DNA from: a virus
Lineage: Duplodnaviria > Heunggongvirae > Uroviricota > Caudoviricetes
DNA length: 16,450 bases
Strand: one strand, 5' to 3'
Virus record (IMG/VR): IMGVR_UViG_2537561618_000007
In this document: one piece after another, positions 3,340 through 3,967 of the stretch
Position numbering within the stretch: position 1 is the stretch's first letter
Layout: each line of letters opens with the position of its first letter
Program-made: the position numbers and the translations under genes
The notes under the pieces: generated by a model
The model's input: the letters and a program-made list of their open reading frames with translations, nothing else
The model's database searches: none
What the model was told of the DNA's origin: nothing

Positions 3340-3648
3340 TTAAACGAAGCGGATCTGGAGTTTTTTTCCAGTAGCGCGGGCGAATTTTTTTAGTGTGGCA
3401 AATGATGGGCCGCTGATACCTGATGCGAGATTACTTTCCATTCTGGTGATCGCGGTCGCTTTTGTTCCCATTCGCTCGGCAACTTCAGCCTGAGTTAAGC
3501 CAGCTTCTTTGCGTGCTGCCAGCATTTCATCAAGCAGTGCGAATTCGTCAGCGATAGCGTCGTATTCTGCTTTAAAAGCCGGGTCTTCCATCCATTTGGC
3601 TGCCATTTCGTCGTGTGTCATGGTGGGGAGAGTGCGTTTACCAGTCAT
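3340..3648 (-). CDS. HigA-family XRE-type HTH antitoxin
   Basis: 102 aa with HTH ...LTQAEVAERMGTKATAITRMES.... RBS AAGGAGG 6 nt upstream of the ATG. Start overlaps the 3' end of the upstream toxin gene by 11 nt. Confidence 0.75.
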   Translation of the reverse strand: MTGKRTLPTMTHDEMAAKWMEDPAFKAEYDAIADEFALLDEMLAARKEAGLTQAEVAERMGTKATAITRMESNLASGISGPSFATLKKFARATGKKLQIRFV

Positions 3649-3967
3649 GCTTAACCTCCTTCATTCTGGTTTCAGCTTTCTTGCGTTCGGCTGGCGGTGT
3701 TTTCTGCGCTTTCTTTACAAAACTATGCAGCATGATGATGCGTTTCCCTGTCAGAGTGCAGTAAAAAACACGCGCGATCCCATCGTTGCCTTTAATTCTG
3801 AGTTCGAAAAGCCCGTCACCAAAGGCGCTGGTGTGAGGTTCTCCGAGATTGCTGCCGTATACCTTCATGCGTTCAACAAGATGCTGGTATCTGGCACGCA
3901 TACTCAATGGAAGCTGATCGACCTCCAGTCGGACCTCTTCACTGTAGTATTCGATAGTGTAGTTCAT
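3638..3967 (-). CDS. Gp49-like / HigB-type (RelE/ParE superfamily) toxin
   Basis: 109 aa from the internal ATG: MNYTIEYYSEEVRLEVDQLP...GLFELRIKGNDGIARVFYCTLTGKRIIMLHSFVKKAQKTPPAERKKAETRMKEV fits the recalled Gp49/HigB-like signature. Toxin-first gene order as in higBA. Confidence 0.7.
   Translation of the reverse strand: MNYTIEYYSEEVRLEVDQLPLSMRARYQHLVERMKVYGSNLGEPHTSAFGDGLFELRIKGNDGIARVFYCTLTGKRIIMLHSFVKKAQKTPPAERKKAETRMKEVKHDW

Follow-up and report, generated by a model that had tools for sequence, protein, structure and literature searches.

A Gp49-type toxin gene and a helix–turn–helix antitoxin gene form a probable autoregulated cassette in a lambdoid prophage remnant

In this work we analysed a pair of genes on the minus strand of a viral DNA stretch of 16,450 nucleotides (IMG/VR record IMGVR_UViG_2537561618_000007, Caudoviricetes; this whole stretch is called the window), which an earlier reading of the letters alone (the original prediction) had taken for a HigB/HigA-type toxin–antitoxin (TA) pair. 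As read from the sequence, the putative toxin gene (3638..3967) opens with an ATG at 3967-3965, ends with a TAA at 3640-3638 and encodes 109 amino acids (AA), and the putative antitoxin gene (3340..3648) opens with an ATG at 3648-3646, stops at 3342-3340 and encodes 102 AA. The two open reading frames (ORFs) overlap by 11 nt (3648..3638), and the Shine-Dalgarno sequence of the antitoxin gene, AAGGAGG (3661-3655, minus strand), falls within the toxin gene at its 3' end and precedes the ATG at 3648 by 6 nt. The coordinates of both ORFs, the overlap and the AAGGAGG sequence are exactly those given in the original prediction, as is the orientation of the pair, with NinE, the Rha-type gene and the replication genes all on the plus strand. 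Other frames were considered. The ORF listing holds a longer, 224-AA toxin frame with a TTG start (3638..4312, minus strand), which was dropped: family matches are confined to its last 109 codons, and the extra 115 codons are merely the antisense of an ash/Rha-family gene. The only other nearby in-frame ATG, at 3979, was dropped as a toxin start because it is followed by an in-frame TAA in two other alleles (loci L004 and L009 of our comparison), so that the 109-AA start is the correct one. On the plus strand, a 276-AA ORF (3509..4339) was dropped as an open upstream extension of the ash/Rha pseudogene frame.

The toxin matches the Pfam family Gp49 (PF05973) in a profile search with an E value of 3.2e-25 and 88.4 bits for a cutoff of 23.9, its residues 15-103 covering positions 2-90 of the 90 in the profile, and it matches PHROG 2523 over its full length (E 5e-45); the earlier assignment to Gp49/HigB-like toxins is borne out. 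The founder of this family, which gave Pfam Gp49 its name, is gp49 of phage N15, to which the toxin is 45% identical (E 3e-26). An AlphaFold2 (AF2) model, which like the conservation counts given below rests on an alignment of 34 homologues (A2), has a predicted local distance difference test (pLDDT) score of 90 and shows a RelE-type fold, with one strand, two helices, four strands and then a helix at residues 92-108, a long C-terminal helix being a trait of Gp49-like toxins (PMC9098466). In a Foldseek search the best matches of this model are Streptococcus pneumoniae HigB (6AF4; E 1e-5, template modelling (TM) score 0.74) and Mycobacterium tuberculosis HigB1 (7AWK/7NBU), with Thermus thermophilus RelE and Vibrio cholerae HigB2 further down (probability 1.00 for HigB, HigB1, RelE and HigB2). 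In the family profile alignment, the HigB1 stretch E66-L-R68 ... R77 corresponds to E55-L-R57 ... R66 of the toxin, and F-Y-K95-N-Q-Q98-K99-T-P to F83-V-K85-K-A-Q88-K89-T-P, so that E66, R68, R77, F93, K95, Q98 and K99 of HigB1 align with E55, R57, R66, F83, K85, Q88 and K89. With the exception of Q88, these toxin residues are invariant across the 34 homologues. In HigB1, the K95A, R68A, R77A and K99A mutations each abolish toxicity, and R68, R77 and K95 were equated with K54, R61 and R81 of RelE (PMC9098466). Sequence and model together support the assignment of the predicted toxin to the RelE/ParE superfamily, as a Gp49/Tad/HigB-like member.

The toxin is identical to S. flexneri proteins labelled 'type II toxin-antitoxin system RelE/ParE family toxin', an NCBI label that does not differentiate between the two activities found in this superfamily, and the weaker fold matches include ParE2 and YoeB/ParE chains. 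A ParE-like protein would poison DNA gyrase instead of cleaving mRNA on the ribosome as RelE and HigB do. We consider this highly improbable here, as the ParE2 and YoeB/ParE chains come far lower in the Foldseek list (E ~0.1, TM 0.43-0.48) than the six top matches (E 1e-5 to 2.5e-4), which are HigB-type RNases, one of them (HigB1, 7NBU) solved on the ribosome with cspA mRNA; in addition, the Arg/Arg/Lys catalytic positions of the RNases are conserved, and the Gp49-type toxins tested to date are RNases (PMC5906591, PMC5416850, PMC9098466). The closest structural relatives of the predicted toxin are thus the HigB/RelE RNases, and it is with these that we group it. As a separate observation, toxin residues 49-99 match the C-terminal end (233-283 of 293) of the PADLOC protein NsnC (E 4.9e-9), and NsnC therefore appears to carry a Gp49/RelE-like domain.

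The antitoxin is composed of an N-terminal segment of about 40 residues followed by an Xre/Cro-type helix–turn–helix (HTH) domain (residues 44-98; HTH_3, E 3.4e-11, a match that, like those of the toxin, chance would not explain), and the chain stops at residue 102, four residues past the HTH match. Its AF2 model has a pLDDT of 72, with the N-terminal part being the least confident, and a fold search with it returned only HTH proteins of a generic kind, among them HipB, HicB and S. pneumoniae HigA (all E >= 8e-3). HTH_37 (PF13744) is the antitoxin family partnered with Gp49 in Tn3 transposons. The antitoxin scores 18.7 bits against this profile, under the gathering cutoff of 27; precomputed PF13744 matches do exist for its more distant homologues, so that the kinship with HTH_37 is real though sub-threshold in this protein.

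Upstream of the toxin gene lies an inverted repeat, ATAAC-N6-GTTAT (3978..3993, 11 nt upstream of the toxin ATG), which is a candidate operator. It occurs once in the window, for 0.01 occurrences expected by chance, and it is found at the same offset in all fetched loci that carry a close allele, among them Glaciimonas and loci from two upstream contexts that are unrelated; altogether the fixed-offset repeat is conserved in 14 of 19 loci, and loci that lack the cassette also lack the repeat. The Glaciimonas counterpart is a perfect 16-bp palindrome, accompanied by a perfect TATAAT 7 nt before the ATG. We place a putative promoter at 3975..4003 on the minus strand, with TTGTGC (4003-3998) as -35, a 17-nt spacer and TATGTT (3980-3975) as -10, so that the candidate operator overlaps both the spacer and the -10. 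The alleles fall into two classes whose sequences are unrelated upstream of about -35, and seven alleles have in common TTG, 17 nt, TATGTT, seven variable bases and the ATG. The toxin ATG thus stands 7 nt past the putative -10, a position that implies a leaderless or near-leaderless toxin mRNA, and no Shine-Dalgarno sequence precedes it in any allele compared. We infer a weak promoter overlapped by an operator and a toxin message with little or no leader. In Escherichia coli SCU-104 (L008, 4299-4640), the toxin allele has a diverged N-terminus and an ATA at the conserved start; because ATA replaces the conserved ATG there, the PGAP annotation takes as start codon the ATG contained in the TATGTT box.

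Several observations bear on whether the two genes work as a pair. The best Protein Data Bank sequence matches of the toxin and of the antitoxin are the two chains of one complex, 6AF3 (6AF3_B for the antitoxin; sequence matches E 6.5e-5 and 1e-3, profile E 3.6e-8). The antitoxin is 38% identical to gp48 of phage N15 (E 2e-15), the neighbour of gp49. In Methylospira and Glaciimonas, the gene of a toxin 65-69% identical to that of the window precedes the homologous HTH gene and again overlaps it by 11 nt; N15 and Acinetobacter pittii likewise have the toxin gene before the HTH gene. Among six enterobacterial alleles, the ratio of nonsynonymous to synonymous substitution rates (dN/dS) ranges from 0.03 to 0.16 in the toxin gene and from 0.00 to 0.08 in the antitoxin gene (0.015-0.08 in pairs with nonsynonymous differences); purifying selection is strong on both genes. 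Profiles, fold and pair evidence thus place the two proteins in the Gp49/Xre-HTH class of TA systems rather than in unrelated non-TA families, and they support the view that the pair is a type II TA system, with a predicted Gp49 (Tad/'HigB2'-like) toxin and a predicted Xre-HTH (Ata/'HigA'-like) antitoxin. Compared with the allele of L005, a nin-region locus, the antitoxin gene differs by one synonymous change (dS 0.015) and the toxin gene by nine synonymous and three nonsynonymous changes (dS 0.146); this uneven divergence within 3340-3967 suggests recombination inside the cassette.

The comparison with characterized systems specifies this class. N15 gp49/gp48, like the present pair, are contiguous genes with the toxin first, carried by a temperate phage, and encode proteins of similar size (103 and 95 AA, compared with 109 and 102 AA here). 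They differ in that N15 is a linear plasmid-prophage whereas the present prophage is integrated and lambdoid, in that their control region is unrelated (another palindrome, and a Shine-Dalgarno sequence before gp49), and in that the two N15 genes abut instead of overlapping by 11 nt. Dziewit 2007, as cited in PMC2701414, reported N15 gp49/gp48, s044/s045 of SXT and Tad-Ata of pAMI2 to be TA modules with a stabilising effect. S. pneumoniae HigBA (6AF3/6AF4) is the top solved-structure match by sequence for both proteins and the top fold match for the toxin, and its toxin shares the ELR and F-x-K-x-x-QKTP motifs; it differs by an identity of only ~19-30%, a longer toxin N-terminus (the crystallised chain has 141 AA) and a chromosomal location in a Gram-positive host. 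M. tuberculosis HigB1 agrees with the toxin in fold, including the long C-terminal helix, and its catalytic residues have identical counterparts here (PMC9098466), with ~22% overall identity; A-site mRNA cleavage is predicted here because fold and catalytic residues agree with those of HigB1. HigB1 is the toxin of a toxin–antitoxin–chaperone (TAC) system, which requires a SecB-like chaperone as well as a C-terminal chaperone addiction (ChAD) tail on its antitoxin. Neither is present at this locus, where the antitoxin ends at residue 102 and the downstream neighbour is ninE, on the opposite strand. In V. cholerae HigB2-HigA2, the toxin gene also comes first and the antitoxin binds the toxin through an N-terminal region that precedes a C-terminal HTH (PMC5416850, PMC11006873), a domain order that matches that of the present antitoxin, including its low-confidence N-terminus. 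HigB2 is a ribosome-dependent mRNase described as Gp49-like (PMC9098466); it gives a weak fold match (E 0.02, TM 0.55) and no sequence match, and it is encoded in a chromosomal superintegron, not in a prophage. Classical HigBA (Proteus Rts1, E. coli K-12) shares the inverted gene order, a RelE-superfamily toxin and an autoregulating HTH antitoxin; there, however, it is the HTH domain that contacts the toxin, in which the long C-terminal helix is missing (PMC9098466). Neither protein of the window matches the Pfam HigB-like toxin family or the NCBIfam HigA antidote family at E <= 0.01, and the sole NCBIfam toxin match, TIGR02683, scores 19.8 bits for a cutoff of 62.85. The name HigB/HigA used in the original prediction consequently holds in the loose sense of a Gp49 module and fails for the families that bear these names. 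Finally, an Acinetobacter plasmid encodes a 63%-identical toxin of 109 AA (330 bp) while the published higB of A. baumannii has 357 bp (PMC5906591), so that identity with the tested HigBA was not established. On sequence criteria, the pair belongs to the Gp49/Tad-Ata ('HigBA2-like') class, and is neither a classical HigB/HigA nor a TAC system. It is an ordinary, intact cassette of a well-known family, and nothing in it departs from the known kind.

The model that we favour is the following. Toxin and antitoxin would be expressed as one toxin-first operon from the weak promoter at 4003-3975. The toxin message, starting at or next to the ATG and having no Shine-Dalgarno sequence, would be poorly translated, while the antitoxin, with its strong AAGGAGG and a start codon that overlaps the end of the toxin gene, would be made in excess. 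The N-terminal segment of about 40 residues of the antitoxin would bind and block the toxin, as the N-terminal disordered region of HigA2 does in V. cholerae (PMC5416850, PMC11006873), and a dimer of its C-terminal HTH would bind ATAAC-N6-GTTAT, over the spacer and the -10, and repress the operon. Once the antitoxin is lost, the free toxin would enter the ribosomal A site and cleave mRNA by means of R57, R66 and K85, and translation would stop. A precedent is provided by a Gp49-type HigBA of A. baumannii, where RNase activity was found, and where the HTH antitoxin autorepresses with the toxin as co-repressor (PMC5906591). In our opinion it is probable that the toxin cleaves mRNA in a ribosome-dependent way and that the HTH antitoxin both neutralises it and is co-regulated with it, because family, fold, catalytic positions, pairing, selection and a conserved candidate operator all point to this. 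We infer the biological role, and also that the Gp49 protein is toxic and depends on the ribosome, that the N-terminal segment of its partner neutralises it, that its message has no leader and that the candidate operator is bound. The best explanation of the locus from its sequence is that the cassette would be a self-contained, autoregulated and independently transcribed moron in a lambdoid prophage remnant.

A number of points weigh against this interpretation. Two residues of HigB1 that contact RNA, K58 and N73, are replaced by S47 and D62 in the toxin. The fold match of the antitoxin is generic for Xre proteins and does not by itself prove that it is an antitoxin. The hexamers of the cassette promoter are poor (8 of 12 consensus positions at best) and were missed by a simple promoter scan, which instead called a site at 4174-4145, outside the cassette. 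Alleles in the nin context lack this site, which belongs to the ash/Rha segment, and we rejected it as the conserved promoter of the cassette; it could add transcription in this window. The ATA start of the SCU-104 toxin can be reconciled with the leaderless model only if this allele is an attenuated one, as may be the case. Literature searches covering Stx, Shigella and lambdoid phages gave nothing specific to this allele. M. tuberculosis HigB2 and HigB3, which are Gp49-type, had no detectable toxicity (PMC9098466), SXT was not destabilised by deletion of the homologues s044-s045 (PMC2654960), and no stabilising effect of A. baumannii higBA2 on its native plasmid was seen (PMC5906591). The non-toxic M. 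tuberculosis proteins and the lack of a maintenance phenotype for s044-s045 also speak for a rival view, in which the pair has ceased to be, or has never been, a working TA system, the Gp49 protein being non-toxic or weak and the HTH protein a small phage transcription regulator. Existing annotation leaves room for such a view: PHROGs files the HTH protein as 'transcriptional regulator' and the toxin family as 'unknown function', and the NCBI name of the antitoxin, identical proteins of which are found on at least 1000 contigs, is just 'helix-turn-helix transcriptional regulator'. This view nevertheless appears very unlikely in the face of the strong purifying selection on both genes, which includes all the aligned catalytic positions, of the strict coupling of the genes with an identical overlap across beta- and gamma-proteobacteria, and of the integrity of both genes in a remnant with decaying neighbours; moreover, those relatives that have been studied experimentally proved to be toxic RNases, each neutralised by its partner (PMC5906591, PMC5416850).

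As for the role of the putative TA module, selfish retention (addiction) of the DNA that carries it would be the most likely, with the exclusion of other phages as a possible extra benefit. Both roles offered in the original prediction, stabilisation of the prophage and abortive infection, are plausible. Addiction fits the reports on N15 and Tad-Ata and the survival of the cassette in a remnant: the cassette has stayed intact next to a dead Rha gene, in a prophage of which insertion sequence (IS) elements have removed the greater part. Alternatively, with the same molecular parts and only the selected function being different, the main role could be anti-phage defence, in which infection would deplete or sequester the antitoxin, and the freed RNase would halt translation before the cycle of the invader ends. 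The arrangement of the locus lends itself to this proposal, since the moron has its own transcription, runs against the early genes of the phage and is found in two slots of variable accessory genes, and so do other systems: HigB-type toxins act in the proven E. coli defence systems PD-lambda-2 (PMC9519451) and HigBAC, the latter sensing lambda gpV (bioRxiv 10.1101/2024.02.24.581848), and the C-terminal half of the toxin resembles the PADLOC NsnC domain (E 5e-9). However, in PADLOC-DB v2 no system model fits the whole pair, the partial NsnC match (toxin 49-99) and generic HTH matches being the only ones, and the proven systems need a third, sensing part, either a SecB-like chaperone with a ChAD tail or a peptidase fusion with a third gene. 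Such a component is absent here, since the antitoxin ends four residues after the HTH and the next gene, ninE, is on the opposite strand. Defence as the main role is therefore possible but rather unlikely, and addiction remains the role that we favour.

The cassette alone is present in 31 of 5426 complete E. coli genomes, in 19 of them at full length and always on the chromosome; it was found on no E. coli plasmid. A 1.17-kb query matched 2465 E. coli genomes, a number that does not measure the prevalence of the cassette, as it reflects flank matches to ninE and Rha. The cassette is also present in the Shigella Stx phages POCJ13 and 75/02. It occupies two slots in lambdoid prophages. The first is the nin or ren-nin region. 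There, L005 has it between NinE and an antirepressor gene; in L002 and L008 it keeps this orientation, with a small hypothetical gene on one side and, on the other, accessory or antirepressor genes that lie upstream of ninB. The second lies between DUF4222 and the ash/Rha gene, ahead of a DnaB-type replication module (L004, L009). The window is a hybrid, with the left flank of the nin slot and the right flank of the DUF4222/ash-Rha slot. In a close prophage, that of E. coli CFSAN029787 (L003), the DUF4222/Rha slot holds a 360-nt minus-strand 'transcriptional regulator' gene (3279-3638) and no cassette, and a separate pair of ParD-like and RelE/ParE genes follows directly after the lysis genes (12024-12558); both positions look like moron slots. 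In E. coli JNEC-KY176 (L010), a gene annotated as 'HigA family addiction module antitoxin' (2677-2982) lies directly downstream of the antitoxin gene of the cassette, with no toxin gene annotated beside it.

The hybrid nature of the window is visible at the nucleotide level. To the left of the cassette are NinB (2715-3125) and ninE (3122-3298; Pfam NinE E 3.3e-41), both on the plus strand, ninE being convergent with the antitoxin gene; to the right, also on the plus strand, are the Rha-type gene and the genes for a DnaC-like ATPase, a DnaB-type helicase, NinH and Q. Positions 3201-3995 are 97.6% identical to the nin-region context of L005 (NinB-NinE-TA-antirepressor), where similarity stops at 3995, and from 4005 onward the window is 99.4% identical to the ash/Rha-replication context of E. 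coli VL7S7 (L001); similarity to L003 also starts at 4005. A mosaic joint between the nin-type segment, which includes the cassette, and the ash/Rha-replication segment is thus located at 3995..4005, in agreement with the mosaic junction proposed in the original prediction. The 'Rha/replication module' named there as a neighbour is correct in position and strand, but Rha is a pseudogene in the window (3989..4849, plus strand). Compared base by base with the intact 286-AA gene of E. coli VL7S7, the ash/Rha-family gene has lost its ATG, since bases 3989-4004 were replaced at the mosaic joint, and it carries a CAG to TAG change at 4337-4339; the Phage_pRha profile matches the 3' part of the frame, and S. 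flexneri CP084879.1 has the same split into Phage_ASH and Phage_pRha ORFs. The first ~70 bp of the ash-type frame (4001-4071) are repeated with 97% identity at 8138-8208 and 8798-8862 of L001, where they form the starts of two tandem ash-family genes of E. coli VL7S7. Modules could recombine at this short shared ash 5' segment. A perfect 10-bp palindrome, CAATATATTG, at 4001-4010, overlaps the putative -35 and the 5' end of the ash/Rha frame at the mosaic joint; it is limited to alleles in the ash/Rha context, being perfect in L009 and imperfect in the L004 counterpart, CAACACATTG.

Family, gene order, RNase mechanism and autoregulation were already established for such modules, and the identical toxin was already annotated as a type II toxin. 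What is added here is a delimited candidate operator and promoter with the leaderless toxin start that they imply, the distribution over two slots, and the hybrid joint with its dead Rha gene. How the antitoxin is kept in excess in toxin-first operons of the Gp49 type was left open (PMC5906591), and a weak leaderless toxin start facing a strongly initiated, translationally coupled antitoxin would achieve it. This allele, compact, conserved and with a delimited putative promoter and operator, could thus serve to study how a toxin-first operon sets its toxin:antitoxin ratio, and the locus is an example of an intact addiction-type module that persists in a decaying, IS-bounded Shigella prophage remnant. 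One may go further and speculate that this fixed design (leaderless start, operator within the promoter, internal Shine-Dalgarno sequence) is a general answer to the need for antitoxin excess, and that the 0.7-kb cassette also acts as a portable homology patch, which promotes out-of-register recombination between prophages and then holds the remnant by addiction. The cassette could be such a patch because it occupies two different lambdoid slots, NinE/antirepressor and DUF4222/ash-Rha, and recombination of this kind would have produced the abnormal order ninB-ninE-TA-Rha-replication-ninH-Q; we regard this combined proposal as unlikely.

Positions 2174-11967 are 99.97% identical to the S. flexneri-type chromosome CP084879.1, and the same arrangement is found on contigs of at least 20 Shigella samples. 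This part of the window forms a prophage remnant of ~9.8 kb, from ninB to Rz, bounded by IS3-family elements, with IS flanks at 1-2174 and 11967-16450; PGAP labels the bounding elements as IS600/IS911-like in matching E. coli records. There are no head, tail or integrase genes in the window, and nothing is left of the structural genes. The cassette counts among the units that are still intact in this decaying lambdoid prophage of Shigella and E. coli. Between Q and the holin gene lie four tandem tRNA genes (9373-9683, plus strand) with the anticodon CAT and with Arg-TCT, Thr-TGT and Gly-TCC; the CAT-anticodon tRNA is annotated by PGAP as tRNA-Ile in matching genomes. In the right IS flank, 12270-12744 and 15216-15690 are inverted copies of one IS that flank another transposase gene.

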